64,000 bases of DNA from Ignavibacteria bacterium (GCA_020635205.1 JACKAE010000001.1:22059-86058), one strand, 5' to 3'. Positions 9,045 to 54,308 are shown, counted from the stretch's first letter. Numbers and translations: made by a program. Notes: a model not told the origin generated them from the letters alone.

Positions 9045-9064
9045 ACAATTCAAAATTCAAAAAT

Positions 9065-32691: not shown

Positions 32692-35241
32692 ATGAATGTT
32701 GTTGAACAATTTCTCGGGCAGGGAGTACTTCCATTTGTAGGGAGGGAGGGAGAGATTGAACGGATTCTCGACTTCTGGCGGGGGACTGTCGATTCCCAGC
32801 GACTTCGTTTACTTCTGTTGACTGCCGAAGCGGGGGCTGGAAAGAGCCGACTGTTAGAAGAGTCAGTTGCGATGATCGAGAACGATGGGGGGGTAGTAAT
32901 TCACGCAAAGCTCTACCCTGAAGGGACGAACGACCTGACTTCCCTCCTAACCCAAGCACTTCAGAGAAAAAAGAAGGATCAGAGAGTTCCCGGCATTCGC
33001 GCAGCCGAAGAGGTGAAGGGGATCGTTCCCTCGCTGCAACGTCTCAGTCGGCTTCGGCCTCTTCTTCTCGTGATTGAAGACCTTCACTTAATGCCGGAAG
33101 AGGCACTCCCCGACCTTACAACGTTGCTCAGCCAACTTGCCGATGAGACAATCTCTGTGCTCGGCTGTGCTCGTCCGGTGCAAATGCAGGCGAGAAGTCG
33201 CCTCGAAAGTTTTCTGGTAGATACCCTCGAAATGAAGGGGCTATCCCCAAATGCAATTGCAAAGCTCTGGAAGGAGTTGTTTGCAGATGAACCGAAAAAT
33301 TGGGTTCCATCCGCTCTACACAAGGCAACCTTCGGCAATCCTCTCGCCCTCCGCTCAGCAATCCGCGCGTTGATTCACGGAAGGGGAGTGGAGCAACGCT
33401 CTGCCTCTCAAATCTGGAAACTCAATATCTCGCAGCAGGAATTTGAAGGGTTGGTTCACCAGAGTGTCTCTCTGGTTGTGGAAGGTCTCGTTGCCCAGTT
33501 AACGCCGGAGTTGCGCCAGAAAGCGGCACGCCTTGCAATGTTGGGGGAAGTTTTTGCCCGCGAGTCTGCGGAATACCTCCTCGGCTCTACCGAGGCACTC
33601 GATCAGTTGCAGGCAACCGGACTCCTTCTCCTCTCTGGCTACCCAGCTTCATCGTTGGCCGGGTACATTCCAGATGCACCTCGCTTTAATAGCGATGGCA
33701 GCTATCCCGGAAGTCGTTCCCCACTGATTGCCTTCACACATTCGCTTCTGCACAACTACCTTGTAGCAGAAGTAGAGGGAGACGCAGTTGCTCTCTGCGA
33801 ACTTCTCTCACGCAATCTCCCTCTCTACTCGTTGGTTCCGTTACGCCTTCTCCGGTCGGTGCAGATCGCTGAAGAAATTTCTGGGGATGTTCTATCGAAC
33901 AGTTTTCAGCGAGTAATTATTGTAGCGCAGCGATTCGACCGCACGTCGAACTGGAAAGAGGGGCACAACGTTTGGGAGACTGCCCGGCATCTTCTCTCAT
34001 TTCTTAAAGAGAGGATACCACCTGAGGAGTACCACTATATCAACGTTGTCTTCCTCACGGTTCAACTCTCTATCTGGCGACGCGAGCGAGGTTCAAAGCG
34101 ATGGCTTGACACATTGGAGAAGGGAATCGAAGCGACAGAAAACTATAGTCGCGAGTGGGAAGCCTATGCCCGCATTCTCCTCTGGGCATATTGGGGAGAA
34201 TATTATGGCCGGGTCGACTATCAGAACACCTTTACTGCCGAGAAGAATGCTCGTGAAGTACTGGAGCGATTCCCTGACCAGAAGTATCGCCCAAGTTGGG
34301 TCTACCATCTGGAAATGCTTACGTTGATTGCCTTGCAGGTAGACGACGAAGAGCGAATTGCCGATATGCAACAGGAGTTCGATACCTTCCTCGCCGATCC
34401 TACGCTCCCACCTGAGATTCGCTCTTCGCTTATTCAGCGACTTGCGAAGTTTTTCCTGATGTACTTTTCGACGCAGGAAGAACTTGCCGAGCGAGTCGCC
34501 TCGCTTGAACTGATTGAGGAGGAGGTCGACGAACTCAGTCCTTTCTTCGGAACCAGTAAGAGTTATTTCCTATTGAGTATCGGGCGGTTTGCGGAGGCTG
34601 AAGAACTGGCCCGGCGGCTAATCACCATTTCGTATGATTTGGGGGAGTGGGGAACCACCTTAACGGCTGCCAGTGTTCGAGCCATGGCGGCTGTGGCAAC
34701 TGGAGCCTCAATTGAGTTTGCTGCCAAAGAATTGAAGGAGGGGATAGAGCTTGTCGAGCAAAACAAGTCGGTTGGTGGGATGACAATAGCTGCCAACGCC
34801 TTCCTCCACATTCTCTTGTTTCTCGGAATCGAACGTCCTGAACAGGCTCTCCGTCAACTCTTCGATCTGTCAATCGATCAGCTTACAAATCAGCAGTTGG
34901 CATTGATTGGTATCTGGAATCATGACCTTGAATCAGCCTCGATACTTTTGAAGGAAGATCACATCAACCAACTCTACTTGAAGGGGGAGAGGGTAAAGGT
35001 CTGGAAAGATTTGCTCGATCCAGAGACGCCTCTCTCGTTCGAGGGATTGGATCGGTTGATGAAGCGAGAGATTTTGGAGCTTCGGGATATTCTATCTGTT
35101 CAGGGAGCATCCACCTTTGGTTGGCAATGCAAATTTCTGAAGAGGATCGAAGTGCCTTCCTCCCAACGGCGCTGGATGTACTGGAGCGAAGTTTGGAGTG
35201 GTTGGCCAGCATCAAGCCTGATTTATACACGACGCCGCTGA
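32692..35241 (+). CDS. STAND/AAA_16-type NTPase with TPR-like helical repeats (regulator copy 1). The C-terminal end is frameshifted.
   Basis: 'FVGREGEIERILDFW' plus Walker A 'TAEAGAGKSRLLEE' and Walker B 'LLLVIEDLHL'. Followed by a long alpha-helical repeat region. From ~nt 35095 the homology to copy 2 continues in a different frame ('WLAMQISEEDRSAFLPTALDVLERSLEWLASIKPDLYTTPLIRLLEKFEG*'). Confidence 0.65.
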   Translation: MNVVEQFLGQGVLPFVGREGEIERILDFWRGTVDSQRLRLLLLTAEAGAGKSRLLEESVAMIENDGGVVIHAKLYPEGTNDLTSLLTQALQRKKKDQRVPGIRAAEEVKGIVPSLQRLSRLRPLLLVIEDLHLMPEEALPDLTTLLSQLADETISVLGCARPVQMQARSRLESFLVDTLEMKGLSPNAIAKLWKELFADEPKNWVPSALHKATFGNPLALRSAIRALIHGRGVEQRSASQIWKLNISQQEFEGLVHQSVSLVVEGLVAQLTPELRQKAARLAMLGEVFARESAEYLLGSTEALDQLQATGLLLLSGYPASSLAGYIPDAPRFNSDGSYPGSRSPLIAFTHSLLHNYLVAEVEGDAVALCELLSRNLPLYSLVPLRLLRSVQIAEEISGDVLSNSFQRVIIVAQRFDRTSNWKEGHNVWETARHLLSFLKERIPPEEYHYINVVFLTVQLSIWRRERGSKRWLDTLEKGIEATENYSREWEAYARILLWAYWGEYYGRVDYQNTFTAEKNAREVLERFPDQKYRPSWVYHLEMLTLIALQVDDEERIADMQQEFDTFLADPTLPPEIRSSLIQRLAKFFLMYFSTQEELAERVASLELIEEEVDELSPFFGTSKSYFLLSIGRFAEAEELARRLITISYDLGEWGTTLTAASVRAMAAVATGASIEFAAKELKEGIELVEQNKSVGGMTIAANAFLHILLFLGIERPEQALRQLFDLSIDQLTNQQLALIGIWNHDLESASILLKEDHINQLYLKGERVKVWKDLLDPETPLSFEGLDRLMKREILELRDILSVQGASTFGWQCKFLKRIEVPSSQRRWMYWSEVWSGWPASSLIYTRRR

Positions 35242-35303
35242 TTCGACTGTTGGAAAAGTTCGAGGGGTAGAACAGGGAAAGAGGTGGCGAGCAATTGTAG
35301 CCG

Positions 35304-36022
35304 ATGCCGAGAAATTACGAAGTGAGAGAGAGGGGAGGGAAAGAAGAGGAAGGCTCGATCCGTATCTCCATGCTCGGCACGATTCGGGTGGCTCTTCCGG
35401 GTGAAGATTTTGTTCCCCTTCGAGGGGTGCGCATCCGAACTCTCTTGGGTTTGATGGTAGCCGACTGCATTCTCTCTCGTCCACTTTCACCCGAGGAGTT
35501 TCTTCGCTTAGCCGGAGGGGATGATCCTGACTTAGAGCACGCACGAAAGAAAAAGAACATGGGTGTTGTCCGTCTCCGTGAGATATTAGGACGTGAGGCC
35601 ATCCTGACCGACGAAGAGACCCCAAGGCTACATGCCGACATAGTAACAGTCGATCTGATTCGAGCCAACGAACTTCTAAGCGAAGTAGGTGGGGCAATCA
35701 GAGAGGGGCGTTAGTTCAGGCGCAACCACTGGTGGAGGAAGCGTTAGAGATCATCGGTGGGGAAGTCCCTTCCCAACACTCTACGACGATTTCTTCGAGG
35801 CAGTCCGGGAAGATTTTGAACATCGGTTGCGGCGTGGACTACTCGAGGTTGCCCGTGGTCTCCTCGCCAGAAGGTGAAGCAAGTCGTGCAGAGACGCTTC
35901 TCCGCCGTGCCTTCGATCTTCTCTCCGGCGATGAAGAGATTGGCGAAACATTGCGGCAAGCCTTAATTGCTTCGGGTAATCGAGTGGAGGCTGCACGGGT
36001 GAAAATGGCGATGACTCCGTAG
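35304..36022 (+). pseudogene. Fragmented SARP-like wHTH + BTAD DNA-binding module. The decayed C-terminal part of regulator copy 1, split over three frames.
   Basis: ORF 35304..35714 encodes 'IRISMLGTIRVALPGEDFVPLRGVRIRTLLGLMVAD...ARKKKNMGVVRLREILG', a SARP-type winged helix. ORFs 35689..35877 and 35732..36022 encode in two other frames the collinear BTAD segments 'FPTLYDDFFEAVREDFEHRLRR' and 'AETLLRRAFDLLSGDEEIGETLRQALIASGNRVEAARVKM'. In copy 2 these are contiguous. Confidence 0.6.
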
Positions 36023-36112
36023 CCGCTCGATAGAGAACTATGGAAATGAGCGATTGCCTGCTATCTTGTATTCAATTACGTACTCTCAGTTTTGTAGAGA
36101 AAGAGCAGAATA

Positions 36113-36343
36113 GTGAATCGGGTTGAGCAATTCCTTCAGCATGGTCTTCTCCCTTTTGTTGGAAGAGGGGAGATTGAGCGCATTCTCAACTTCTGGCGTG
36201 GCACAGTTGAGTCGCAGCACCTGCGCGCATTTCTGTTTAACAGCCGAGGCGAAGTGGAAAAAGTCGACTGCTATCTGAGTGTATCGAGCGGATTGAGGGG
36301 GGGGAGTTGTTGTTCACGCAAAGTTGTATCCGGAGGCCGCTAA
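36113..36343 (+). pseudogene. Disrupted N-terminal (P-loop) fragment of regulator copy 2.
   Basis: 'MNRVEQFLQHGLLPFVGRGEIERILNFWRGTVESQHL' matches the copy-1 N-terminus. The Walker A region is then replaced by 'FLFNSRGEVEKVDCYLS...' with a net 5-nt deletion relative to copy 1 (96 vs 91 nt) and a frame change. Confidence 0.6.
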
Positions 36344-39300
36344 CGACCTTGCAAAGCTTCTTGCCGGGGCACTTTGGAACAGCAAGGAGATACGGAAGCT
36401 CCTCGGCAGTCAACCGAACGAATCTGTTCCCGCAATTCTCGCAGCACTCCGTCGCCTTAGCCGACTTCGCCCAACCGTGATTGTGTTGGAAGACCTTCAC
36501 CTGCTTACCGTCGAGGCGATTCCTGATCTCGCCTCACTTCTCGGCAGCCTTTCCGATGAAACTCTCTCGCTGATTGCTCTGGCTCGTCCGGTGCAGCTTC
36601 AGGCTCGTGGTCTGCTGGAGAATTACCTTACCGAAACTGTCGAGATGAAAGGCTTGGAGCAACCTGACATTGTTGAACTTTGGAGTCAACTGTTTGGTGC
36701 TCCGGCAAAAGCAAAAGAGATTTCGCTGCTGGAGAAGATCACGTTTGGGAACGGGCTTGCTCTCCGCTCTGCTCTGCGAGCCGCTCTGCAAAGTGGGACA
36801 GTTCAGCAACGTGGAGCATCTGGAACGTGGCGACTCACAGCCTCTATTGTAGAGTTCGAGAATATCTTAAGGCAGAGTGTCTCTCTGGTAGTTGAGGGAT
36901 TGGTGGCCGGATTAACGCCAGAAATGCGAGATAATCTCGCTTGCATTGCTCTGCTTGGTGAAGTCTTTGCTCGGGAGACTGCGGAGAGAGTCATTGGCTC
37001 TGGGGAGCAATTGAACGTGCTGTTGGAGACCGACCTACTGATTACCGCTGGGCATCTGATCCCACCAATTCCGGGGCTTCCCATTTCAAAAGTCGAAACA
37101 TCGTGGCCTGCAAGTCAGTTGCCGTTGATTGCCTTCACTCACTCACTCCTCCACAACTATCTCGTCACCAAAAGTGATGTGGATGTCGATCTCCTGTCGG
37201 CAGTAGTAGCCGAAAACCTTCCCCTCTACTCTCTTCTTCCCTTTCGATTACTTCGCTCTGCTCCCATCTCTCCCCACTTTTCAGGAGAAGTGCTGGCTAC
37301 TGCAATTACCCGTTGTTTTGCTGTCGCACAAATTATCGACCGAACGTCGAACTGGAAGGAGAGCTATGAGAGTGTCTGGCTAACTGCCGAGTACCTTGTG
37401 CCATCCCTTGAAGGGAGAGTGGCGAACGAAGAGTATCGGAGCCGTCACATTATGGAGAAAACTGTGAAGCTCTCTCTGCTCCGTCGGGAGATCACTTCCG
37501 AGAAGTGGCGGAAAGCCTTAGATGCAGCCATGCAGGTTACCGAAGATATTCGGGATGGAAACGAAGCCCGAGGGAGGTTGATGGCCTGTTCGCAGTGGCA
37601 CGAGTGGCACAGCCGCCACAACTACCAGCACTCTCTCGAAGTACAACAGATGGTGAAACCTCTCCTACAAATCTACCCGTTACTTCGCTACGATGTCATC
37701 TACATTTACTATCTCGATGGACTTGCCTCGGCTGCCGAGCGGATAGGAGATATGGAGACACTCCGTGCGATACAGGAGATGGCCAAGGAGTTGTTCAACG
37801 ACATATCAACTCCGCCTGAGTCCCGCACAATCATCATCAGAAGATTGCTGAAGTATCTACTGCAAACATACTCTTCAGAAGAGGAGATTGAGGAGTGCTG
37901 GAGAACCATCGAGCAGATTGAAGAAGAGATTGACGAAGAGGATCCCTACTACGGGGTTGCCAAGTCTTTTTTCTTGGAAGCGATCGGAATGTACAAAGAG
38001 GCTGCCGACCTTTCCGAGCGAGTGAGCAAGCAGTGCCGTGATCGCGGAGTCTGGCTAAACGCCCTCCTCTGTGAAGCTACACGAGGCATCTGTCGTGCTG
38101 CCTGTGGCGAACCAGTAGAGGAGTTAAAGAATCGAGCAAAGAAAATTTTTGCAGAGGGGAAAGAACATGAAGTACCGCAGACCTTAGCCGAATCGTTAGC
38201 GAACCAACTCTATCACGTTAATCTCTATCGAGGGGAACCAAACGTAGCTGAAATCTATGCTGAATTTGGGATCTCAACAGAAGACCTTAGTACCCAACAT
38301 ATCGGAGTGCAGGGCATTTGGGATGAGAAGAGGGAAGTTGCAGTCTCCATTATCGGCACTGATATAAACAACTATATCGAGATACCCAACGATGTCTGGA
38401 AAATCTGGAGTGAGTACCTGCAAGACCCATCGTTGCAACAGAGAGAGCAACTTCATTCCTTGCTTCAGTTGCCGATACTTCGAACGCAGGATATGCTGAA
38501 AGTTGTGGGTACTCTTCACATCTGGTTGATCGGGGAAGATATTCAAGAGTTGAAGAACGATCTCCCTTCCTTTACAACTGCTCTGGATAGCGTGCGGCGT
38601 GGACTTGCTTGGCTGGAGAAGAGGAACTGCACGGCATACATGCTACCCCTGATTGAGTTCTTAAAGCGATTTGGGGAAGAGAGTGAAGGGGAGGAGTGGG
38701 AACGTCAAGTAAGGGAGGGAGCAATCCCGCAGAAGGAAGAAGTGGTGGCTGAGGGAGCGCCGGAGAAAATTAGAATATCGATGCTCGGGACTATCCGCGT
38801 GGCGATGCCATCAGAACAGCTTGTACCAGTTCGGGGCGTTCGTATACGGACACTGCTGGGGCTAATGGTTGCCGACAAACTACTTGCCCGGCCACTCTCC
38901 ACCGACGAGTTCCTTCGGCTTGCCGGTGGGGATGATCCCGATCCAGAGCACGCCCGGAAGAAGAAGAACATGGGGGTTGTTCGGCTGCGCGAGATCTTAG
39001 GGCGAGATGCAATCCTCACCGACCAGGAGACTCCCTCTTTGAACGAGGATCTCGTGGAAGTCGATTTAATTCAGGGGGATAAGAAAATTCGCGAGGCACT
39101 CGAAGCAGTCTCTGAGGGGGCACTTGTTAGAGCACTTCCGCTGGTGCAAGAGGTGTTGGAAGTGATAGGGGGAGAAGTTCCCTTCCCAACGTTGTACGAC
39201 GATTTCTTCGAGGCAGTGCGGGGAGACTTCGAGCACCGACTACGCCGTGCTGTAATTGAAACAGCCCGGGGGCTATCCGATGGGGGAGATGTAGGGAGTG

Positions 39301-39434
39301 CGGAGACTTTGCTCCGCAAGGGATTTGAAGTTCTTCCGGGGGATGAGGAGATTAGCGAGATGTTGCGCCAAGCCTTGATCGCCTCCGGTAATCGCGTAGA
39401 AGCCGAGCGGGTGAAGATGGGAATGAGTTCGTAA
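36324..39434 (+). CDS. STAND-family regulator copy 2: Walker-B/TPR body fused in frame to a C-terminal SARP-like wHTH + BTAD domain. The Walker A is missing and the start is a non-ATG TTG codon.
   Basis: Collinear homologue of copy 1 from 'VHAKLYPE' onward, with Walker B 'VIVLEDLHLL'. Intact C-terminal 'IRISMLGTIRVAMPSEQLVPVRGVRIRTLLGLMVAD...VVRLREILG' and BTAD 'AETLLRKGFEVLPGDEEISEMLRQALIASGNRVEAERV'. Confidence 0.65.
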   Translation: MYPEAANDLAKLLAGALWNSKEIRKLLGSQPNESVPAILAALRRLSRLRPTVIVLEDLHLLTVEAIPDLASLLGSLSDETLSLIALARPVQLQARGLLENYLTETVEMKGLEQPDIVELWSQLFGAPAKAKEISLLEKITFGNGLALRSALRAALQSGTVQQRGASGTWRLTASIVEFENILRQSVSLVVEGLVAGLTPEMRDNLACIALLGEVFARETAERVIGSGEQLNVLLETDLLITAGHLIPPIPGLPISKVETSWPASQLPLIAFTHSLLHNYLVTKSDVDVDLLSAVVAENLPLYSLLPFRLLRSAPISPHFSGEVLATAITRCFAVAQIIDRTSNWKESYESVWLTAEYLVPSLEGRVANEEYRSRHIMEKTVKLSLLRREITSEKWRKALDAAMQVTEDIRDGNEARGRLMACSQWHEWHSRHNYQHSLEVQQMVKPLLQIYPLLRYDVIYIYYLDGLASAAERIGDMETLRAIQEMAKELFNDISTPPESRTIIIRRLLKYLLQTYSSEEEIEECWRTIEQIEEEIDEEDPYYGVAKSFFLEAIGMYKEAADLSERVSKQCRDRGVWLNALLCEATRGICRAACGEPVEELKNRAKKIFAEGKEHEVPQTLAESLANQLYHVNLYRGEPNVAEIYAEFGISTEDLSTQHIGVQGIWDEKREVAVSIIGTDINNYIEIPNDVWKIWSEYLQDPSLQQREQLHSLLQLPILRTQDMLKVVGTLHIWLIGEDIQELKNDLPSFTTALDSVRRGLAWLEKRNCTAYMLPLIEFLKRFGEESEGEEWERQVREGAIPQKEEVVAEGAPEKIRISMLGTIRVAMPSEQLVPVRGVRIRTLLGLMVADKLLARPLSTDEFLRLAGGDDPDPEHARKKKNMGVVRLREILGRDAILTDQETPSLNEDLVEVDLIQGDKKIREALEAVSEGALVRALPLVQEVLEVIGGEVPFPTLYDDFFEAVRGDFEHRLRRAVIETARGLSDGGDVGSAETLLRKGFEVLPGDEEISEMLRQALIASGNRVEAERVKMGMSS

Positions 39435-43794: not shown

Positions 43795-44292
43795 TTATCC
43801 TCTTTTCGCAAACACGTCTACAAATCCTCCACCATCTTTCTCCACCCACGATTCCACGTGAATGGTGAGCCGGTGTTGAGGAATGTTCCATGAACGGAAG
43901 ATAGGTGAGTGTTCACGTGCTTCGCTGGCAGTGTCAGAGGTGAGGTTGAAGGGGGGAGGAATTAATTCGATGATTGTCGACCCCTCTGGCACAAGTTTGA
44001 AGTCGATAATTACTCCATCTCGAACTTCTGCCATTAGGTCGATCAACGGTTCTACAAAGGTGTAGACTACAATAGTTGCCTTCTCTTCCAAATCGTCCGG
44101 TACGTCAATCTGCATATGTTCCCAGCGATGTGAAACGCGGTTCCGTCGCTCTGCATCCTGCCGGACGATGTCGTGTTGTGTCGGTAGTTGTTTGTCGGTC
44201 ATTGTGCCCTTTCTCGTTGGACGTTTGGTAGGTTCGATGAAATCAGATCGGGTTAGATTTCTATCGAACAAAAATTTCTCCGCTCCGCTCAA
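43795..44292 (-). CDS. Hypothetical cytoplasmic protein. Last gene of the minus-strand operon. An alternative start at the internal Met of 'MTDKQL' (nt 44202, giving 43795..44202) would avoid overlapping the upstream gene.
   Basis: ORF of 165 aa with no signal peptide and no recognisable motif. The 5' end overlaps the upstream gene by 32 nt. Confidence 0.4.
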   Translation of the reverse strand: MSGAEKFLFDRNLTRSDFIEPTKRPTRKGTMTDKQLPTQHDIVRQDAERRNRVSHRWEHMQIDVPDDLEEKATIVVYTFVEPLIDLMAEVRDGVIIDFKLVPEGSTIIELIPPPFNLTSDTASEAREHSPIFRSWNIPQHRLTIHVESWVEKDGGGFVDVFAKRG

Positions 44293-46414
44293 TCATTGAC
44301 TCTCCACCATCCTCGGTCACTACTTTGATGCCGTAGCGGTAGCGAGACCCGGTGAAGATGTCCCGGTCAACATACTCTGTCGCCTTCCCCTCAACGGCAC
44401 TCACCAAAGCGAGCTTCCCATCATCCACACTCTTGTAGAGCATCACCTGCACGTCGGTTGAGATCAAGCCGCTCCAGCGCAAGACAATCCCGCCTGCTGT
44501 TGAGTCGTAGGTAGCATTCACTGCCGTTACGCCGGCTCGCACGCCGTTGTCGTAAGGGCGGGCGGTTACGATATTGGAAAGACTGGAGCGATTGCCGTCG
44601 TCGTCGAGTGCGTCGAGCGCATATTCGTAGAGGATGCCCCGCTCGGCTGTGGAATCAGAGTAATCGAGAAGTGCCGGGTCTGCGCTGCTGAACAACGTTT
44701 CCCACTCGGTTCCCCCCGCAACACGACGGTAGAGTGCGTGCTCCATCGCATCCCCACTCGGACTGCGATACCAACGGATCGCCACGCCCCGATCGCCCGG
44801 CGCCACGCCAATGATAGCCGGTGCGACCGGAGCGATGACGTCCGGTTTCTTTAGTTTCAATGTTTGGGTAAAGTTCGAGTGGTTGAAATTCCAGTCGAGT
44901 GCAGTCACTTTATAGTAAATATCTTCGCTCAAGGTTTGGAGCGTCAGCGTATCCTTAAAGATCGTGTCGGTGGTGATCTTCGTGGTTAGCTGTTGGAACT
45001 CGTGATCTTCTTGGTTTGCGAAGAAGACCCGGTATCCCTGCAAATCGTTCTCTTCGTTTGGTGACCAAGTAAGCGTCACCACACCGTTCGAGTCGATAGT
45101 TCCGGCAAGCCCTTGCGGGATCATCGGAGCAATCGAGTCGGGAAGGATTCCGAGTACAGGACTTGAGTTCCGCAAGTTCCCCGCCGTATCGATTGCGCCC
45201 ACAACGTAGTAGCCGGGGAGGAGTGTGTCAACACCGTAGTGTGTAAACTCTCTCGCATCGAGTGGAAGGTAGTCACTAATGGCTTCAAACGGCCCTTCTG
45301 TTCCACCACCACGTCCGATCACGAAGCCATCAAGATCACTTTCCATATCGTGCGGCAGCTCCCACTGAATCTTGATGCCGTTCCCCTCAACAACTTCTGG
45401 GAGAGAAATCAACGGTGCTTTCGGTGGAGTCATGTCGCGACCCATTGCCGTGATCTCTTTTCCACTGGGCGAACTGTCGCCGAAGGGGTCAATGCCAACA
45501 ACCCGATAGGTAATCGGCTCGTAGTTCCGTTCAAGTTCGATGCGGTACTCAATCGTGTCGAAATTCCCTTCGCTTGCGTCGTCGATCTCTCCATTGTTTA
45601 CTGGGATGAAGGGAATCTCCTTCAGGCGCTTGAAGTTCGGTCCTCCATCTGTTGAACGTTCGATATAGTAACCAGTGAAAGGAGTTGAGTGCTCGAAACG
45701 ATACCACTTCAACACAACTAACTTCTCCCCTTCGGAGGCTGTCAGAGTCTCTATTGTTGGGACGTTCTCCCGTGGGACAACGCCGAGTGCAACTACTGCG
45801 GTGTCAACAGGTTGGTTCGGGTCGTTTGCTAAGGAGTAGAGCCGATAGAGGTAGGCTTTCCCGGGGACGACATCGCGGTCAACATATCGTAGCCCATATC
45901 CGTTGGCGAGGCGTGGGGCAATATCGGCCAAGACCATCGCGAAGCCGTGCATACTCTGCTGTTGCAGATAGGTCTCGTAGATGCTTCCGAACGGATCGGT
46001 CTCCGTCACAATTGCCGAGCCGTAGAGGGTCTGCACTGCTGCCCCAGCAAGTGTATCTTCGGGTCGGTACTGAGACTTCCACTCATCGATAGTCAGTGGG
46101 CGAATCGGTGAAGCGTTCAGTCGTTTCCAGTTCGGTTTCTCCGGCATTGTCTCCGTTAGCTCCATACGCTCGAGAACAAATCCTCCGCGACCGGCAGTCT
46201 GCCATGCTGTATAGGTGGTTGCACCCCACCGAAGGACAACAGAGTCACCGTACGACCGAGCTAAAATTTGGAGATTTGGCCCAGTAGCTGAATCTGTTTC
46301 GTCGAGGACGCTCTCTCGGTCGAATGGATATTCTCCATCTGCTCCTTCATCTTGTGCCAAGATGGGAGTTGCTATAAGCAACAGCGCGAGTATCAACAAA
46401 GAAATTCCGTTCAT
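44261..46414 (-). CDS. Secreted multi-fibronectin-type-III-domain protein, 717 aa.
   Basis: Signal 'MNGISLLILALLLIATPILAQ'. Several Fn3-like repeats ('YLYRLYSLAND', 'YYKVTALDWNFNHS', 'YEYALDALDDDGNRSS', 'YRYGIKVVTEDGG'). Confidence 0.6.
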   Translation of the reverse strand: MNGISLLILALLLIATPILAQDEGADGEYPFDRESVLDETDSATGPNLQILARSYGDSVVLRWGATTYTAWQTAGRGGFVLERMELTETMPEKPNWKRLNASPIRPLTIDEWKSQYRPEDTLAGAAVQTLYGSAIVTETDPFGSIYETYLQQQSMHGFAMVLADIAPRLANGYGLRYVDRDVVPGKAYLYRLYSLANDPNQPVDTAVVALGVVPRENVPTIETLTASEGEKLVVLKWYRFEHSTPFTGYYIERSTDGGPNFKRLKEIPFIPVNNGEIDDASEGNFDTIEYRIELERNYEPITYRVVGIDPFGDSSPSGKEITAMGRDMTPPKAPLISLPEVVEGNGIKIQWELPHDMESDLDGFVIGRGGGTEGPFEAISDYLPLDAREFTHYGVDTLLPGYYVVGAIDTAGNLRNSSPVLGILPDSIAPMIPQGLAGTIDSNGVVTLTWSPNEENDLQGYRVFFANQEDHEFQQLTTKITTDTIFKDTLTLQTLSEDIYYKVTALDWNFNHSNFTQTLKLKKPDVIAPVAPAIIGVAPGDRGVAIRWYRSPSGDAMEHALYRRVAGGTEWETLFSSADPALLDYSDSTAERGILYEYALDALDDDGNRSSLSNIVTARPYDNGVRAGVTAVNATYDSTAGGIVLRWSGLISTDVQVMLYKSVDDGKLALVSAVEGKATEYVDRDIFTGSRYRYGIKVVTEDGGESMIERSGEIFVR

Positions 46415-46501
46415 GATATTCTATCGTCTGATATTGTATGAGTTCTAATGTTCTGGCCTATCGGGCGCAGGCGTTTAGCCTGCGCCCACTGAAGGCAATG
46501 G

Positions 46502-49500
46502 TTATGGAAGGTCGAGTTTGATTACGCCGCCGTTGTTTGCCAGAGTGTTCCCATCGCGGCCAATGAAGCGTATATCGTACTTGCTCGATCTCTTTACCTT
46601 CATCTGAAAGAAATGTGGATTCTTTGGAGTTCCGTTGGCGAAGGTGAATGGATAGTTCCACTTCGCAAATCCCCACCACTCCGGCGTCTGGCTAAATGCG
46701 CTTGCGTTTAGTCCGTAGCGGTAGAGAAGTTCGTCGGCAACTCTGTCTCGATCTTTCAACAGAACTGTTGCGGCGTCGTAGCGAATCTCCAACGTGTTGA
46801 TTTCGTTCTGCGCAATGTTCATGTTTGCGTTTGCGTTCATGCCGCCCCCTCCTCTCGATACGTTCCCCTTCGTTTGCACTGTCGCTTTAAACGTTGACTT
46901 ATTCAATACTCCCCCCGGCTTATTCGGTTCTGGATCAAAGCCTTTCCAGTAGACCGCGTTGATCTCTCCATTTGTGAGCTTCGTTGTTGCTCCGGTTCCG
47001 ATATACTTCAACCCTACAGCCCACTTCGGGAAAGGCTCAGCGGCGATAAATGTTCCGTTGGTCAACTGGCTTCCCGGTAGGTAAGCGTTCTTGCTCGGAT
47101 ATGTTCGCAGAGTGCGCGTATTCGGCTGCGCAAATTTTGCGTTGAAGGCTACATCAGTCATCAACATGTGGTTGAAGTAAGGGAACTCCAGATAGTCGAG
47201 ATAGTATGCCTTCAAGTTGGACCAGTAGGCGTCAGAACCTACGTTTGACTTATCAATAGCCTCTACCCGCACTAATGGTTGGATATACTCTGTCTTGCCA
47301 CCTTTTGTCCAAGCAATCTGCTTTAGGTCGTACCAGCCAAGAGGCTCTTCACCACTGTAGCGGGCGTAGATCGTATTCGAGTCACTTCCGTTTCCGGTTC
47401 CGATATATTTCTGGTTTGTATTCTTTAGATAGGCAACCATCTTATCCTTCAGTCGAGAATACTTGCTTGTCTTAAAGGCGATTTGGTAGACCATGAACTC
47501 GTTGTCGCCAAGCTGGATAGCTTTCAAGCGTTGTTGCTTCACGCTAATGGAGTTCCTGTCGCCGAGAGACTTCGACTTTGTATAGCTTTCCAGATTCTTA
47601 TCACCGCTGGTTGTGTATTTACTATCTCCCCCTTCCGATTTACCTGCGAACTTCATTCCACCACCACCAGACTTCCCTCCGGCAGCGATCTTCTTGTCGC
47701 CTCCCATCAAGCCTCCTTTCTTCACCATCTTGCGGACAATCTGAATGATATAGAGTTGCTCTTTCTTCAGGTCAGCGTACGGCATGATAAACTTTGCCTT
47801 CGGCTCAGCCGGATTTGCATCCCACGTCAGTGGTGTCTCCGCAACAACCTGACTACCAGCACCAATCTCTTGGAACCGCGCTACATACTTGTACTCGTAA
47901 TCCGGGTCCTTCGGCTTCAGGTTTGGAATGTTTGCCGGGAAGAGTTTGAATCGGACATAGCCCTCGGTTCCACCATCTGATGTGTAGTAGTAGCGTTGCC
48001 GCTGCCCCGGCTTCGTGATTACAATGTTCTGGTCAACGAAATTCTCCGGTGCTTTCCCAGTTGTGAAGTCCTGCGTGCGAGCCTCTACATGTTCCTGATT
48101 GCTAAACCTGTTCTTCGTGATCCGCACCCACTGATTGTCTACCAATCGGTCGCCGTAAATTTTAACAGTGATGCGGTGCTTGGTTGACTCATCCAACATC
48201 TGATCTGGCTCGAAGAGAGCGCTCATTGCATTGTTGTAGAGCGAGTAGGTTCCCTCCACCTTCTGTCCATTCTTCATGTTCTTCACCGAGAATTCACGAA
48301 TACCAAATCGGAAGTGTGAGGTAACAACTTCCTCTTCTTCGTTAACTCCTTGTACGGAGATCACTTTGTTCGTCCCAACTGGTAGGTTGAAGGCAACCTC
48401 GGGATAGGAGAAGACATCCACATCGTTTCCAGTCGGTTTGATGTCGGCGATAACTTTCAGGTCGCCGAACGGATCTCCCGGAGGAGCACACTCCGAACCA
48501 TAGTGGAACTTGAAGTTGCACTGCCCGGTAAGGAGTCCGTTGAGTACAGAATAGTATCCAGCTACCTGCCCTTTCAGCCACGTTGGGTTTGGCAAACCTG
48601 CCTTCAGTCCGGCGCAGACTCCCACTTCCAGAATTGGGATATCTGCTTTGATGAACCAAAGGTTGATGTCGATTCCAAGCTCTGCTTCAAGTCCAGCATA
48701 TACTTGTCCGCGGGCGTACCAGCCGTTCATACCGGCGATTCCACCTTCAGCGTCGGCGCACTCTAAGTTCTCCTTCATTACTGAGACATCGTAGCCGAAG
48801 GCGATAGCGATGCGGGCGTAGAAGATCAAGAACTTCAGTTTGCCAGTGTTAATCGAAAGTTGCTGCCCAAGTGCAAAGCCGCTTCCGTTGTCCACACTTG
48901 CATCTCGGGGATTTTCATCGTTGAAGTAGGGGAGCTTCTCTTGGAAGTTAATCGGACTTGTTGGCAACGGAGGGAGTGGTGGTAGACTATTCTTACCAAC
49001 CATGAAGTATGTGTTGATGTCGAGCAAGTCGAGTACCGTCAGTCCTATCGGATCGTCCGGTGTTCCCACCTTGATAAACCACTTATCCTTGCTGAAGTGC
49101 ATTGCGCACTGTCCGCCACCGACGAGGATATTCTTCTTTCCTGCCTTCAGGTTGAAGTTGATGTCGATCAACCCGTCGAACGTTTTCATCGCCGCCGAGT
49201 ATCTGAATCCAACCGATGCACTGACGACTGCCTTGCTCTCGGCGGGGCGTTGCTTCGGGTTTAGATCGCTAACGAAGTAGCCATTGCCGACAAGCGAAAT
49301 TTCGTTTAATCCTCCTCCTTGGAAGAAGGATGCTTCCAGTGTGATGTCGCCGTTAAATGCTTTTGGTGATGGCATTGTTCCCATCACGATCGTTGCCTTA
49401 AATCCGAATGCGATGTTCGGGTCGGGATCGTAGGTTGTTCCCGAAGAAGATGCCCCGGCCTTATCTTGGTCGAAGTCCTTCGCGTTTCCTGGGTCACCCT

Positions 49501-52500
49501 CCAGATTCGCTGCGCCAGGAATCGAATTCACAGGCTTCATGTGGTAGTATGCGCCGCCACCAAATCCGTAGATACCGAAGCCGGGGTAGACCATGATACC
49601 GGCGTTCATCACCGCCATCGCGTCTACGTACCAGTAGCGGTAGTTATCGTTTCCGTTTTTGTACTTCGTGCTGCCGAACTGAACAGTTGCGGAGACCTGC
49701 ACAAGTGGCTTGAACTTTACCTCGAGTGCGCCTCGGAATCCATCACCGAACTTCTCATCACCATTGTAGAGATTTACTTCACCCTTGATTTCACAGGTGG
49801 CGATACTGGCGTCGATAGAGATCGAGTTCAACTCCGGCTTATCGATTGTCCACGATTGTTTGCCGTTCTGCTCCACCATCTTTCCCCAGATCGTGAAATT
49901 CGTTCCGCCACTGATTGCGCTCTGGCCATTCCCATCCAGCCCGATGTGGAAGCCGAGTGCAATGCCAGCTTTCGTCCCGTCATCCTTGAACTTGATTTCG
50001 ATGCCGTCGTCAGGCTTGATGCTGACGGGGAAGCCTGCAAAACTCTTTTCTGGACTTGCGAACTTGAAAGAGGTTGCCGAGATGTAGGGCTTCTTGTTTC
50101 TGATCTTCAAGTCTTGAAACTCCACTTCCGGAATTTTCACGCTGACGTTCTTCATCTCCGGGAACTTCTTGTCGATAGTAAGGTCTCCGCTCAGCTTTGC
50201 CTCTACGGTCACATCACCACCACCGGCGGTGATATTCAATTGCGATCCTTCGTAGAGAGAGAGAGTTGCCCCCCACATATCCACAACGATGTCGCCAATG
50301 TTACTCACGCTGAATGCTGTCTGTACACCTTGATCCGAGTTGCTAAGCAGGCAAGAGTAGCCGATACCGTTCTCTGCTACGGGTAGTTTGATCTTCCCAG
50401 CGAACTCTCCCTTTGTCAGTGAGTTGTTGACGAAAGACATCTCGAACAAATCAATAGAGAAGCCCCAACCTCCGATGCTCCCTTGGTCGATTGAGAAGAC
50501 TGGTTCGGCCTTCACGTTTCCGGTAAATCCAAGTTTGTTGATGAGGGCATCGCTGAGGGATATGGTTGTGGCCGAGTTTCCCTTCTTCAAGTAGTTCGGA
50601 AGCGTGACGGTAATCTGTTTGAAGAAGAAGCCTTTCCAGTCATCCCCTTGCGCCCCTTGATAGTTGGCGGGGAAGGCCATGTTCTCTGCGTTTCGTGTGT
50701 CGGAGAAGTCGAGCACAACGTCGTCGAATGTGAACTTCACTCCTTGCATTCCCTTCACGCTGAAGGCGTCCATCGAAACCTCGCCGAGAAGATCACCCCA
50801 AGCCGATGCGTTGAAGGTGAAGCTGGCCTTTACTGGCCCTTCCCCATCAGCCTTCTCAATCATCTGGTTGTTGAAAGTGAAGAAGCCATCTACTTGCAAG
50901 CCCTTGAATCCTTCGCAGTCCCACTTCACAAATGTGCCGCTGTTCCCTTGCGCTTTCTTCAACGTTACCTGCACATTCTCTCCCCAGTCGAAGGTCTTGT
51001 CGTTCCCGAGCATGGTCAGTTTCTGGAGGCCATCTATTGACAGTCCTGTTGGGTGGAAGCAGACATTCTTCTGTGCGAAGGCGAGAATCTGGTTGTTCGC
51101 TTCAGGAATCGGGAAGTCCATCACCGCGTTGAGTCGAGCGCCATCTGGGGCAAACTCCACGGCCACAACGTCAATCAACTGAATCTTGCTATCTACAATA
51201 TCTTTGAAGGCAAAGGGGAGACCTTGCACGTCGAGGTTTGCGAAGTTGTCGATATACTTCTGGTGGCTCTTGATGAAGTTGGTGACATTCTGCACCTTCT
51301 GCTCGGTGATATTTCCGAGGTTGTCCTGAAAGTCTTGCAGTGCTTGATCCACCTGTGATCCCGGATCGTACGCACCAATTGCTTTCCCCATGTAGACCTT
51401 GTGCTGTGGGTTCAGCTTCAGTCCATTGAACGTCGCCTTCAACTGTACTTTAAAGATCGGAGCATCGATTGTCCCCTCACCTGTCAAGTTCCCTGCACTC
51501 GGGTCGGAGAGACTTGTAAGCGTCATCGTGAAGTAGCCGATCTGTACCTCGTCTCCCACTTTGTAGCTGTAATTGCTCGGTGTGTTGGATGGAGCGGGGG
51601 GAGCACAGTTGAGTGATTGGCAGTCGGAGACGTAGTTCTGATCTAAGTCAATGTTCCCTTGGTCGTCATCCTCATCTTCTTCATCCTCCACGAGATCGTT
51701 ACCGCCACCATAGGTAAAGGAGCAGACAACGCTCTCACCATCATTCTTAAATGATAGAGGCTTGCTTCCCTTCTTTGCGCGAGCGGTAATCCGAACGGCA
51801 TACTTCATTTCCTCCTCAAGTTGCGGATCGGTTGGTCCGTAGAGGTAGCTTGTGCCGATCACAACTTTTTCGAAAAAGGGAGGTTCTGGAGCCGAGGCCA
51901 TTGCCTGGGCGGGGGGCGTATTTGCCGGAAGAATTTCAACAATGGTTAAAACGTACTCTAAGTCTGCCGGGGGTGCTCCCGGAGGAATCGTCCAAGAGAA
52001 GAGAACGTTCTGTGGATTGCTCAGGTTTACGATGCCGTTGCACGATGGTGTCAGAAGTTCCGGTGGATTCAGGTGGGTAATCTGAAAGTTTGCGCAGCCG
52101 GAAGGAGCCGGATTTGAAAGTGCTACCCCACTCTGAAAGTCGAGTGCCTGAAGGCAGAAACTGTAGTTTCCTTCCGGTAAGCCGTTTCCCTGCACAACCT
52201 CAGCTTTCGAGATACCGGAGAACTGCACATTGTCCGGGTCCAGATAATCACTCAGGTCACTCCCCTTCAACACCTTTACTCCGTTTGCCGGAACATTGAT
52301 AGGTGAATTCGGCACAAAGCTCTTGGGGATCGTAATTGTGACGCCGGTGTTCCCTTTAATCGAACCAGTTAGCCGGACATTCTCTGCTTTTCCCGACGTG
52401 TTCGTTAGCGTAATCACCACCTTGTTGTCGAATCCGACGTAGTCGGAAAGGTATGGCGAGTAGGGGGGGAAGACCTGAGTCGTCACCTGAATTGTTTGTG

Positions 52501-52654
52501 CGCTAATAGTTGTAGTAGCCAGTGTGAGGAAGAGGGCAAAGAGTACCCCCCACCTTAATCCTCCCCCGAATATGTGGGGGGGGGTAACGTGCCGCTTCCA
52601 CGAGATCATCGTCGTGTGCGGGCGTACGTTCCCTCTCTTAAAATCTGTACGCAT
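46502..52654 (-). CDS. Giant (2050 aa) secreted Lys/Gly/Asn-rich protein of unknown function.
   Basis: Uninterrupted 6.15-kb ORF. Signal-like 'WGVLFALFLTLATTTISAQ' after a short N-extension. Internal Gly/Lys-rich linker 'KKGGLMGGDKKIAAGGKSGGGGMKFAGKSEGG'. Overlaps the upstream OMP gene by 17 nt. Confidence 0.65.
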   Translation of the reverse strand: MRTDFKRGNVRPHTTMISWKRHVTPPHIFGGGLRWGVLFALFLTLATTTISAQTIQVTTQVFPPYSPYLSDYVGFDNKVVITLTNTSGKAENVRLTGSIKGNTGVTITIPKSFVPNSPINVPANGVKVLKGSDLSDYLDPDNVQFSGISKAEVVQGNGLPEGNYSFCLQALDFQSGVALSNPAPSGCANFQITHLNPPELLTPSCNGIVNLSNPQNVLFSWTIPPGAPPADLEYVLTIVEILPANTPPAQAMASAPEPPFFEKVVIGTSYLYGPTDPQLEEEMKYAVRITARAKKGSKPLSFKNDGESVVCSFTYGGGNDLVEDEEDEDDDQGNIDLDQNYVSDCQSLNCAPPAPSNTPSNYSYKVGDEVQIGYFTMTLTSLSDPSAGNLTGEGTIDAPIFKVQLKATFNGLKLNPQHKVYMGKAIGAYDPGSQVDQALQDFQDNLGNITEQKVQNVTNFIKSHQKYIDNFANLDVQGLPFAFKDIVDSKIQLIDVVAVEFAPDGARLNAVMDFPIPEANNQILAFAQKNVCFHPTGLSIDGLQKLTMLGNDKTFDWGENVQVTLKKAQGNSGTFVKWDCEGFKGLQVDGFFTFNNQMIEKADGEGPVKASFTFNASAWGDLLGEVSMDAFSVKGMQGVKFTFDDVVLDFSDTRNAENMAFPANYQGAQGDDWKGFFFKQITVTLPNYLKKGNSATTISLSDALINKLGFTGNVKAEPVFSIDQGSIGGWGFSIDLFEMSFVNNSLTKGEFAGKIKLPVAENGIGYSCLLSNSDQGVQTAFSVSNIGDIVVDMWGATLSLYEGSQLNITAGGGDVTVEAKLSGDLTIDKKFPEMKNVSVKIPEVEFQDLKIRNKKPYISATSFKFASPEKSFAGFPVSIKPDDGIEIKFKDDGTKAGIALGFHIGLDGNGQSAISGGTNFTIWGKMVEQNGKQSWTIDKPELNSISIDASIATCEIKGEVNLYNGDEKFGDGFRGALEVKFKPLVQVSATVQFGSTKYKNGNDNYRYWYVDAMAVMNAGIMVYPGFGIYGFGGGAYYHMKPVNSIPGAANLEGDPGNAKDFDQDKAGASSSGTTYDPDPNIAFGFKATIVMGTMPSPKAFNGDITLEASFFQGGGLNEISLVGNGYFVSDLNPKQRPAESKAVVSASVGFRYSAAMKTFDGLIDINFNLKAGKKNILVGGGQCAMHFSKDKWFIKVGTPDDPIGLTVLDLLDINTYFMVGKNSLPPLPPLPTSPINFQEKLPYFNDENPRDASVDNGSGFALGQQLSINTGKLKFLIFYARIAIAFGYDVSVMKENLECADAEGGIAGMNGWYARGQVYAGLEAELGIDINLWFIKADIPILEVGVCAGLKAGLPNPTWLKGQVAGYYSVLNGLLTGQCNFKFHYGSECAPPGDPFGDLKVIADIKPTGNDVDVFSYPEVAFNLPVGTNKVISVQGVNEEEEVVTSHFRFGIREFSVKNMKNGQKVEGTYSLYNNAMSALFEPDQMLDESTKHRITVKIYGDRLVDNQWVRITKNRFSNQEHVEARTQDFTTGKAPENFVDQNIVITKPGQRQRYYYTSDGGTEGYVRFKLFPANIPNLKPKDPDYEYKYVARFQEIGAGSQVVAETPLTWDANPAEPKAKFIMPYADLKKEQLYIIQIVRKMVKKGGLMGGDKKIAAGGKSGGGGMKFAGKSEGGDSKYTTSGDKNLESYTKSKSLGDRNSISVKQQRLKAIQLGDNEFMVYQIAFKTSKYSRLKDKMVAYLKNTNQKYIGTGNGSDSNTIYARYSGEEPLGWYDLKQIAWTKGGKTEYIQPLVRVEAIDKSNVGSDAYWSNLKAYYLDYLEFPYFNHMLMTDVAFNAKFAQPNTRTLRTYPSKNAYLPGSQLTNGTFIAAEPFPKWAVGLKYIGTGATTKLTNGEINAVYWKGFDPEPNKPGGVLNKSTFKATVQTKGNVSRGGGGMNANANMNIAQNEINTLEIRYDAATVLLKDRDRVADELLYRYGLNASAFSQTPEWWGFAKWNYPFTFANGTPKNPHFFQMKVKRSSKYDIRFIGRDGNTLANNGGVIKLDLP

Positions 52655-54308
52655 AGCCTGCTATCCCTGTATATTCTGTGAACGTTGAATTCTTTATTTC
52701 ATCGGATCCGTTTGCCGAGACTGTCGAGAAGTTCAGGTTGAAGCTGTGGTGATCTCCCGTCCGATATATTCCGCCAAGACCCAGCGCAACCGTTCGCGAA
52801 TTTTCTCCGAGCGTGGCAGAGATACTGCCGTTCAAGCCGAGCTTCTCCTTAAACAATCCTTTCGAACCACCGAGCGAAACCGATGTCGTGATCTGCTCTC
52901 CAGCCAAGTTCTCCATGCGCGTTCCGGTTAGCGATCCAGTTACTGAGAAGCTCGATTTCAGTCCGGTCAGCGTGTAGCTGAGCGAGGCAATCGTTGTGTT
53001 GTACTCAGAGTAGCTCGCAGTGAAGGTGTTGTTGTCGAGCAGTCGCTGGTGCGTAGCTGTCAGGAAGAATGCGTGGCTGAAAGTTGTGTCAGTAATCATG
53101 TAGCGGGGGGCAACCATCACCATTGGGGTCTGTTGGTGGAGTCGTGTAGTATCATTTACTGGAAGCGTTCCCTCCGATTGCGAGATCATCTGTGTGCTCC
53201 CAGTGAGCAGAATTCCGAACGATGCGCTCGGACTCCAATTCATTGTCAGCGATGGGGAGAGATTCTCTGTGGTAGCGAGCTTCTTTCCCTGAAGGTTGTC
53301 GTGCCCCCAAGTGAAGCTGCCGTTAAAGGTCAGCTTCCGGTTCGCTACTGCCAAGGATGGTGCGATAGAAACACTCTCCACATCTCCCGAGGTGTAGTAA
53401 GCCCCCATCGATTGATAGTCTGGATCGATCCGCGTGTAGTTTGCATTCATCGAGAAGACGTTGCCGTAATAGTTGGCGTCGGCTCGCAGAGCAGTGTAGA
53501 TCTGTGTGGAAGCGCGGGGTGTAATCACATCGCCGAACGCCTCGGCCTCATCGCTGAGGGCAATCGAATCGCTTCGGACGTCTCGCGTGTAGCTGCTAAC
53601 TGCGCCGTCGATCTTGAACGTAAGGTTGTTGGCTGGCTTTAATCCGAACGTTGCCCCAACCACTAAGTTCTCTCCGGGGCGCACATTTGCGTTTTCGGCA
53701 ATTGTGTTTCGGAGCGAGGTTGTGTCGTCGGCAGCTTTCAGAAAGCTGAGGTCAACTGAGAATCCATTGTTCCCATACCCAAGTCGTCCGGCATATCCGG
53801 TACGCCTGTAGACTGGCTCCACGATGTTCAATGTATCGGCAGTATCTACTTGCACACCCTGCTGCAACTCTCCGGCAATGAACGATGCGCGGAAATCTCC
53901 CGGCATCAGTTCAACTCCGGCTCCCAACATTTGATGTCCCGAAAGTGTGTAAGGGGAGAACGAGAGGTTCCGATAGCCGAGGTGTGCGGTTGCCCACTTG
54001 TATTGTGGACTTGCGCCAAACTGATTGAAGGGTTGGCTGAAGGAACGATCCTGCGTGCTCCAAGAGAAAGAGAAGGGGAGCTGTAAGCCGTAGAGATCGA
54101 GCGTTACGTTTCCTGCAACTAACGCAGAGAAGGGATCTCGTCGATTCTCAATTCCAGAAACTCCGTAGCCTACCAGTCGTGAGGAGATTGCCCCACTCAA
54201 CTTTACTGGTGACTCCTTTCCGACCCGCTCCAAATCTTGGGCATTCAAATGAAGTCCAAGTGTTAGGATCAGGAATGTTGTGGCGATGATGTATCGTGCA
54301 ATGTTCAT
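52638..54308 (-). CDS. Outer-membrane beta-barrel protein, ~555 aa. First gene of the operon.
   Basis: Signal 'MNIARYIIATTFLILTLGLHLNAQ'. Alternating amphipathic beta-strand pattern throughout. C-terminal 'GIAGYAYRF' aromatic OMP signature. Confidence 0.6.
   Translation of the reverse strand: MNIARYIIATTFLILTLGLHLNAQDLERVGKESPVKLSGAISSRLVGYGVSGIENRRDPFSALVAGNVTLDLYGLQLPFSFSWSTQDRSFSQPFNQFGASPQYKWATAHLGYRNLSFSPYTLSGHQMLGAGVELMPGDFRASFIAGELQQGVQVDTADTLNIVEPVYRRTGYAGRLGYGNNGFSVDLSFLKAADDTTSLRNTIAENANVRPGENLVVGATFGLKPANNLTFKIDGAVSSYTRDVRSDSIALSDEAEAFGDVITPRASTQIYTALRADANYYGNVFSMNANYTRIDPDYQSMGAYYTSGDVESVSIAPSLAVANRKLTFNGSFTWGHDNLQGKKLATTENLSPSLTMNWSPSASFGILLTGSTQMISQSEGTLPVNDTTRLHQQTPMVMVAPRYMITDTTFSHAFFLTATHQRLLDNNTFTASYSEYNTTIASLSYTLTGLKSSFSVTGSLTGTRMENLAGEQITTSVSLGGSKGLFKEKLGLNGSISATLGENSRTVALGLGGIYRTGDHHSFNLNFSTVSANGSDEIKNSTFTEYTGIAGYAYRF

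Follow-up and report, generated by a model that had tools for sequence, protein, structure and literature searches.

The window analysed here is a 64,000-nucleotide stretch of DNA from an Ignavibacteria bacterium (GCA_020635205.1, JACKAE010000001.1:22059-86058), in which two adjacent genes on the plus strand, copy 1 (32692..36022) and copy 2 (36113..39434), code for paralogous regulators of a STAND-SARP type, with a nucleoside triphosphatase (NTPase) at the N terminus, a long helical array in the middle and a predicted DNA-binding module at the C terminus. Both genes are broken by frameshifts in the deposited sequence. The original prediction, made from this DNA alone, had put forward reciprocal decay after duplication or a split two-component arrangement, and had allowed in principle for an assembly error. 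Comparison with assemblies of other samples points to a different picture, and the best joint explanation, which we hold with considerable confidence, is that the organism carries two intact regulators of 1111 and 1109 residues, that the breaks are a local consensus error, and that an operon elsewhere in the window is a candidate for their target.

Tandem regulator genes at the locus

Copy 1, as delimited by its open reading frames (ORFs), by alignment with its paralogue and by an intact 1111-aa version in other assemblies, is represented in the window by a main ORF of 849 residues (32692-35241, +) and by C-terminal remnants at 35304-35714, 35689-35877 and 35732-36022, which are scattered over three frames as had been predicted. 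Copy 2 begins with an N-terminal fragment, a 76-aa ORF at 36113-36343, and continues as a 1036-aa ORF at 36324-39434. The two long ORFs were found by cluster look-up as the deposited proteins MCB9214266.1 (849 aa) and MCB9214271.1 (1036 aa, H6616_00235) of a contig of 1,282,117 bp; an exact look-up of the 849-aa product in the contig index gave no record. DNA alignment bears out that the two units are collinear paralogues, about 80% identical at their ends and with stretches of up to 23 identical bases in common, and the intact proteins, as translated from the contig L001 introduced below, are 48.7% identical.

The intact form of copy 2 is P0001, a protein of 1109 residues whose GTG start corresponds to 36113. 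A protein search showed it to be essentially identical to the 1036-aa ORF with 73 additional N-terminal residues, which include the whole AEAGAGKS P-loop. Exact look-up placed P0001 in the assemblies of five other samples, namely L001 (NCBI GCA_020437445.1), L002 (ENA ERZ28654902), L003 (Logan SRR7453062), L004 (ENA ERZ27309307) and L005 (Logan SRR7638767), in all of which the flanking genes and the gene order are the same. This survey for intact orthologues found both genes whole in L001, L003 and L005, with 1111 residues for copy 1 and 1109 for copy 2; in L002 a run of N is all that splits copy 1, and the L004 contig starts inside copy 1, at about window position 35370-35380, the place at which two short-read assemblies break. 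A further intact pair is on the NCBI record for GCA_041391565.1 and an intact copy 2 on that of a Kapaibacterium metagenome-assembled genome (MAG), and intact versions are deposited as MCB0714052.1/MCB0714051.1, MEZ4784661.1/MEZ4784660.1 and MGE3800717.1.

The breaks lie within one small island

Base-by-base comparison of the window with L001 over 23.3 kb (26118-49434) revealed about 20 differences, every one of which falls within 35103..36356, an island of 1.25 kb (1254 bp, not assigned to a strand) that is private to this assembly and extends from the 3' end of copy 1 into the 5' end of copy 2. The probability that 20 evenly spread events would share a single 1254-bp stretch is about 4e-26. 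Ten of the differences are deletions inside or beside G/C runs, most of them of a single nucleotide (examples are G4 to G3, C3 to C2, G5 to G4 and the loss of GGA or GGGA), three are insertions of one nucleotide each, and the substitutions are nearly all from G/C to A/T. Elsewhere, the window between 536 and 23065 differs from the locus L082 at five positions only, all within 14212-14258, and L081, which reaches 24381, shows a few more differences around a repeat at about 14142-14202.

In copy 1 the indels lie at 35103, 35206, 35225, 35264, 35336-7, 35705, 35767 and 35869. The frame change that had been placed near 35095 is indeed present, as a 1-nt deletion at 35103, and the predicted stop at about 35268 follows the 1-nt deletion at 35264. 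In copy 2 there is an in-frame loss of three nucleotides at 36170 and a net loss of five that is made up of 36236 (+1), 36255-6 (-2) and 36299 (-4). The claim that the Walker A region of copy 2 had been replaced by a non-homologous stretch did not hold up: the sequence is the same with small indels, and 'LTAEA' and 'SGKSRLL' are still readable in the other two frames.

If the frameshifts were real, reciprocal decay would have left an NTPase-sensor protein without a DNA-binding module beside a P-loop-less protein that retains it. The deposited sequence does carry the breaks, and NCBI has annotated 849-aa and 1036-aa products from it; moreover, the long remaining ORFs are whole, as would be expected if truncated products were still under selection, and a related locus, L205 (GCA_942491375.1), also has one split copy (575 + 519 aa). 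Such decay would, however, have to account for about 20 changes packed into 1.25 kb when the remaining 22 kb or so has none, which is incompatible with neutral decay in a clonal population, and for changes that are mainly single-base losses in short G/C runs. Three contigs hold both genes intact, NCBI records from two more MAGs agree with them, and short-read assemblers break at the same spot. We regard real decay as very unlikely, and neither it nor the split two-component arrangement is borne out, the breaks being absent from other assemblies and the differences confined to the island.

The position of most indels in G or C runs might also bring to mind programmed frameshifting, or phase variation at homopolymer tracts that would switch the regulators on and off. 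These tracts are only 3-6 nt long, however, and known contingency tracts are far longer. At least 11 separate frame-shifting indels would all need decoding, substitutions come along with the indels, and no variation in tract length is seen among the other assemblies, which leaves this explanation with a negligible probability. The island also sits across the junction of two paralogous genes with shared stretches of identical DNA, a setting in which gene conversion, or an assembler that collapses or mixes the paralogues, could be at work. Yet of 32 alignment columns that differ, the window shares its base with the paralogue in no more than about 5, including one at the trimmed alignment end, and this is the level expected by chance; since some 27 of the 32 do not show the paralogue's base, we rejected this origin as extremely improbable.

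The frameshifts of both copies are thus very probably artefacts of this assembly, given that identity to the assemblies of other samples over more than 40 kb excludes some 20 neutral changes within 1.25 kb, and the breaks, being absent from the other assemblies, are a property of this assembly and not of the organism. The assembly error that had been conceded in principle is borne out as far as a comparison of assemblies allows. Most likely, the island is a weakly polished long-read consensus at a place where short-read contigs break, a long-read origin being suggested by the 1.28-Mb contig and the types of error. Two points weigh against the artefact: it was deduced from other assemblies and not from read pile-ups, and some of the compared assemblies may have raw data in common. 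The public annotation of this MAG at the locus, with its 849-aa and 1036-aa products and additional fragments, is wrong. What looked strikingly like reciprocal decay came here from 1.25 kb of unpolished sequence within a long contig that is otherwise accurate, and clusters of frameshifts beside paralogues in long-read or hybrid MAGs should be compared with other assemblies before a biological reading is attempted.

Architecture of the intact proteins

The N-terminal part of copy 1 (approximately residues 1-360; 32692..33771, +) is assigned to a nucleotide-binding oligomerisation module with NTPase, helical and winged-helix parts on the basis of its Pfam AAA_16 match, invariant family columns and the model of copy 2, from which its boundaries were taken over. 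It contains a Walker A motif GAGKS, a Walker B motif IEDLH, an ARP sensor, the sequence GNPLALRS and a conserved histidine in FTHSLLH. Pfam AAA_16 matches copy 1 of the window with E=3e-10 and, over residues 14-150 of the intact proteins, copy 1 with E=5e-10 and copy 2 with E=1e-12. Among 38 aligned family members the Walker A GxGKSR, the Walker B ED with a following H and the RP sensor motif are invariant, and the motif G..A.R and the histidine in FTHSLLH are likewise invariant or conserved. We interpret G..A.R as the probable counterpart of the NB-ARC 'GLPLA' motif, and the histidine appears to lie at the position of the STAND MHD-type histidine.

An AlphaFold2 model of full-length P0001, with a predicted local distance difference test score (pLDDT) of 87, comprises an alpha/beta NTPase followed by helical and winged-helix parts (residues 1 to about 360), all-helical repeats (about 390-872), a low-confidence linker (874-885) and a compact C-terminal module (889-1109). 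Its best match among solved structures is the STAND-TPR protein 6mfv (E=8e-12, 738 columns), followed by Apaf-1, CED-4, ORC/Cdc6 and plant NLRs. The helical region of copy 2 (residues 390-872; 37272..38720, +), modelled with pLDDT values mostly above 85, aligns with the TPR part of 6mfv and is presumed to be the sensor or arm domain. Both hallmarks of a STAND protein, the nucleotide-binding oligomerisation module and the repeat-type sensor, are therefore recognisable, and the AAA_16/STAND NTPase and long helical array of the original prediction are borne out by Pfam AAA_16, the model and the fold matches. Searches with full-length protein sequences and profiles against solved structures returned nothing useful.

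The C terminus is supported as a SARP module by several lines of evidence. In copy 2 it is predicted to consist of an OmpR/SARP-type winged helix-turn-helix (residues 889-986; 38769..39062, +), with the recognition helix ARKKKNMGVVRLRE, and of a TPR-like BTAD (residues 987-1109; 39063..39431, +). A 31-sequence profile of the last 255 or so residues matches the AfsR SARP domain (8hvr_I) over its whole length with E=5e-8, and the NCBIfam AfsR model matches the winged helix of copy 2 with E=6e-6. An AlphaFold2 model of the copy-2 C terminus in the window (pLDDT 91.7) found strong Foldseek matches only in AfsR (8k60 and 8hvr; E=1.7e-7, template modelling (TM) score 0.63) and EmbR (2ff4 and 2fez), with alignments of 220-237 columns. 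For both copies, the predicted winged helix and BTAD are accordingly borne out by the AfsR profile and by the model with its Foldseek matches. As in other SARPs, the BTAD directly follows an OmpR-type winged helix; the module is, however, not N-terminal, as it occupies residues 889-1109 of 1109, and the domain order is indeed reversed relative to AfsR.

Weighing against this assignment, Pfam Trans_reg_C has no match on either the fragments or the intact proteins, and Pfam BTAD (PF03704) scores 15.9-18.8 bits on copy 1, below its cut-off of 22.1, and has no match on copy 2. In six homologues, P0006, P0010, P0057, P0098, P0108 and P0117, the BTAD profile scores above its cut-off (25-29 bits against 22.1), and it does so at the corresponding C-terminal position. 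Of the four Pfam families named in the original prediction, then, AAA_16 is present and BTAD is found in the homologues, while Trans_reg_C, BTAD in copy 2 and TPR, for which the 390-872 stretch of copy 2 gave no significant match, could not be matched. When the C-terminal module alone served as the profile, the only hits were pieces of genes on short contigs, a result that says nothing on stand-alone SARPs in these phyla.

Distribution of the family

Against 1.84 billion cluster representatives, a full profile search returned 397 proteins (50%-identity clusters) at E<=1e-30. Among the 397, the best 150 match almost without exception from end to end, with lengths mostly of 1050-1140 residues, and the C-terminal SARP arrangement is therefore a stable trait of the family. 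By name, its members stem from MAGs of Ignavibacteriota, Candidatus Kapabacteria/Kapaibacterium, Chlorobiota, Bacteroidota and Armatimonadota, and some have been labelled 'DNA-binding SARP family transcriptional activator' by the JGI pipeline. A scan of genome contigs, in which matches to the generic Walker A pattern predominated, yielded only five family loci of full or nearly full length (L009-L013) and, as L014, a short piece of an N terminus; their sources are Kapaibacterium, Bacteroidota, Armatimonadota and unclassified MAGs.

Tandem pairs or triples occur in L006, L007, L008, L084, L205 and L206. In a neighbour-joining tree copy 2 groups with P0002 and P0003 and copy 1 with P0005, so that the duplication seen in the window is older than the split from the organism of L006, and other lineages carry regulator pairs of their own. 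In L205 the first of three tandem family genes (6360-9660) is split into a 575-aa part with the AAA_16 domain and a 519-aa part with the BTAD in different frames, and could be either a true pseudogene or another assembly error.

Comparison with known regulators

The described SARP classes (small, medium, large and SARP-LAL) all have an N-terminal module, and a 2024 review regards SARPs as exclusive to actinobacteria (PMC10972967). Full-text literature searches turned up neither an account of a C-terminal SARP module nor any report of SARPs from Ignavibacteria. The intact genes indicate that the SARP module is not confined to actinobacteria, contrary to that review, and that it can occupy the C-terminal end of an AAA_16 STAND switch.

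In terms of parts, AfsR and the other large SARPs of Streptomyces (SARP - NB-ARC - TPR) are built from the same three modules as the window proteins, that is, a SARP effector, a STAND NTPase and a helical sensor. The SARP domain of AfsR aligns with and superposes on the C-terminal module, and its direct-repeat operator is of the kind that would likewise be expected here. However, AfsR carries the SARP domain at the N terminus, its identity to the C-terminal module of the window is only about 20%, the NTPase of the window proteins is of the AAA_16 type without an NB-ARC match, and the family is hosted by Ignavibacteriota/Kapabacteria-type MAGs rather than by actinobacteria. EmbR of M. tuberculosis (winged helix - BTAD - FHA) matches the module in fold (Foldseek E=5e-6 over about 235 columns), yet it has neither NTPase nor helical sensor and is controlled via its FHA domain and a Ser/Thr kinase.

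In terms of layout, the window proteins compare with the MalT/LAL regulators, which share the topology of an N-terminal AAA_16-type module, a helical sensor and a C-terminal DNA-binding effector; members of both groups are presumed to activate transcription as oligomers that form in dependence on ATP and a ligand. The effector differs, being a LuxR/GerE helix-turn-helix in MalT and a SARP winged helix with BTAD in the window proteins; Pfam GerE does not match the latter, which thus lack the C-terminal LuxR domain of the MalT/LAL group, and no sequence match was detectable between them and any solved MalT chain. The SARP-LALs (PimR, SanG and FilR), in which a SARP module is joined to an AAA_16/LAL-type ATPase half (PMC10972967), resemble the window proteins in combining a SARP with an AAA_16-type ATPase, but their SARP is N-terminal and they are actinobacterial and situated in antibiotic gene clusters. 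For the NTPase and repeats, the best fold match is the archaeal STAND protein with a TPR sensor of the PH0952 type (6mfv), which is without a DNA-binding effector and has a low overall TM-score of 0.22-0.34.

The layout of the family is therefore that of MalT/LAL and its type of effector that of AfsR: it follows the MalT plan with a SARP in place of the LuxR helix-turn-helix. The family is uncharacterised, yet half-recognised by annotation pipelines, and is not a categorical novelty. Any functional reading of it is a prediction from sequence and modelled structures. As a large family of uniform length with a candidate operator and operon, it offers an entry into transcriptional control in the little-studied Ignavibacteriota and Kapabacteria.

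A candidate target operon

Synteny with the regulator genes in six related genomes singles out an operon on the minus strand (43795..54353) as a candidate target. Its predicted products are a signal-peptide protein of 571 residues, a protein of 2050 residues, an fn3 protein of 717 residues and a small protein of about 135 residues. The 2050-aa protein is without a Pfam domain and has a weakly TANFOR-like N terminus; it is 76-84% identical between genomes, and the regulators in the genomes that are syntenic with the operon are only 40-58% identical. The regulators lie directly next to this operon, in divergent orientation, in L007, L084 and L205.

Upstream of the operon lies a candidate operator of three direct-repeat boxes (54397..54473, -), which was recognised by its conservation. 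Boxes 1 and 2 (54473-54464 and 54451-54442, -) both read AACCGTGGCC and are 22 nt apart, and a degenerate box 3 (54406-54397, -) lies about 42-45 nt beyond box 2 in four genomes. They are followed by a -33-like CGTTTCC (54384-54378, -) and a -7-like TAAATTG (54368-54362, -; TAnATTG across genomes) that resemble a Bacteroidota promoter. The same layout is found in all four readable upstream regions of the 571-aa gene, those of the window, L007, L084 and L205, and in an alignment of the four promoters all conservation is lost upstream of box 1. Paired boxes are located at about 1855-1886 in L007, 9740-9771 in L084 and 5937-5968 in L205, and also occur next to family genes in L009 (33-64) and L083, where two pairs (17426-17457 and about 17134-17165) lie on either side of a divergent intergenic region.

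In the window there is one instance of the exact two-box pattern, where 0.06 would be expected even if three mismatches were tolerated, and the pattern was not found in unrelated control loci that total 856 kb. Boxes on their own are no more frequent in the window than chance predicts. A metagenome scan for ACCGTGGCC-N13-ACCGTGGCC gave at least 120 stretches, and in none of the 80 loci examined was there a family gene; these 80 were 22-nt minisatellites or GC-rich chance matches and are uninformative. No convincing direct repeats were found beside the regulator pair or upstream of the oxidase and lipase genes, and a promoter and terminator scan stayed at chance level. At loci that bear the boxes the regulators have a common recognition helix, ARKK[KR]NM[GA]VVRLRE, whereas at box-less loci the helices are different. 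SARPs are reported to bind heptameric direct repeats with spacers of 4-15 nt, sometimes three repeats in number (PMC10972967), and such spacers between heptamers correspond to a period of 11-22 nt.

We tentatively propose that the AACCGTGGCC repeats are the operator of these regulators, an assignment to which we give slightly less than an even chance. Several observations weigh against it. In the window the regulators are about 15 kb from the operon promoter; the boxes lie about 40-120 nt upstream of the -7-like element without overlapping the -33 element, unlike most SARP sites; and both the conservation of the boxes and their correlation with the recognition helix are confounded by phylogeny and synteny. 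The boxes might instead be bound by a different factor while the intact regulators target other genes, such as those for the multicopper oxidase, copper efflux or cargo of the type IX secretion system (T9SS). The missing overlap with the -33-like element would suit this alternative, as would the synteny of the multicopper oxidase and an SGL/bMG3 secreted protein with the regulator pair in several genomes and the conservation of a palindrome-like TCAAC..TGA between boxes 2 and 3. Nevertheless, tandem direct repeats have the geometry that suits binding of the SARP/OmpR type, regulators and box-bearing promoter are divergent neighbours in L007, L084 and L205, the type of recognition helix changes with the presence or absence of boxes, and the regions upstream of the oxidase gene and of the regulator genes gave no comparable repeats; we consider a different factor less likely than not. 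The original prediction had suggested control of surface or secretome genes from the position of the pair between T9SS cargo genes and opposite a convergent giant lipase gene, and such a link now receives indirect support from conserved synteny and the candidate operator.

Overlapping with boxes 1 and 2 is an ORF of 162 residues (54407-54895, -) that matches the REP-associated tyrosine transposases below the cut-off of the model (NCBIfam NF047646, E=1e-11, 44.8 bits against 80). It may mark a rearrangement that moved the regulators off the divergent position that they hold in L007, L084 and L205.

Proposed mode of action

By analogy with MalT and AfsR, we propose the following mechanism for the two regulators. 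Autoinhibition would be relieved once the helical region has bound a ligand or a partner, and exchange of ADP for ATP in the nucleotide-binding module could then drive oligomerisation, possibly into a hetero-oligomer of both paralogues; such a heteromer is plausible because tandem paralogy persists. The SARP modules would thereby be set side by side on tandem direct repeats, and the BTAD may contact RNA polymerase or help to recruit it. The best candidate target for this action would be the operon at 43795-54353 (-), with its AACCGTGGCC boxes 22 nt apart in the promoter. The analysis itself supports the artefact, the domain architecture, the family, the synteny and the conserved boxes, and the switching mechanism, the DNA binding to the boxes and the activation are inferred.

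Extended to the whole family of about 400 clusters, this model would describe dedicated ligand-switched activators that act as a hetero-oligomer of the paralogues via triple AACCGTGGCC repeats with a 22-nt spacing, and whose target in Ignavibacteriota/Kapabacteria is a strongly conserved operon of giant secreted or surface proteins. We consider this extension speculative and, on balance, doubtful. If true, a SARP-type regulon would for the first time be known outside Actinobacteria, and bacterial NLR-like switches would gain a new arrangement of the effector.

Other features of the window

The only other cluster of differences from related assemblies lies at 14142-14258, where five differences from L082, one of them a deletion, fall within 47 bp. 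It adjoins a repeat of about 170 bp that has another copy number in L081, and may represent a second small patch of consensus error or true repeat variation. A second error island had also been considered at 6361-7743 and was rejected, the small ORFs there being called identically in other assemblies.

Convergent to the regulators is a gene for a 1239-aa protein (39525-43244, -), in which a DUF676/alpha-beta-hydrolase domain is found only at residues 917-1035 or thereabouts, the N-terminal 900 residues being without a family match. L006 and L206, although syntenic in other respects, lack this gene. The protein encoded at 56839-58611 is not on record by exact look-up in the contig index.

A copper-handling island (7743-16727 and 28900-30582) encodes an outer-membrane factor, a CusB-like adaptor with an HMBD, a CusA-like RND pump of 1146 residues, two HMA proteins, a cupredoxin and a multicopper oxidase that adjoins the regulators; a multicopper oxidase near the regulator pair is also seen in L006 and L084. 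Two adjacent paralogous FG-GAP genes (24726-26456 and 26550-28277, -) have 488 bp in common with a DNA identity of 90%, and in L083 a homologue adjoins the single regulator.

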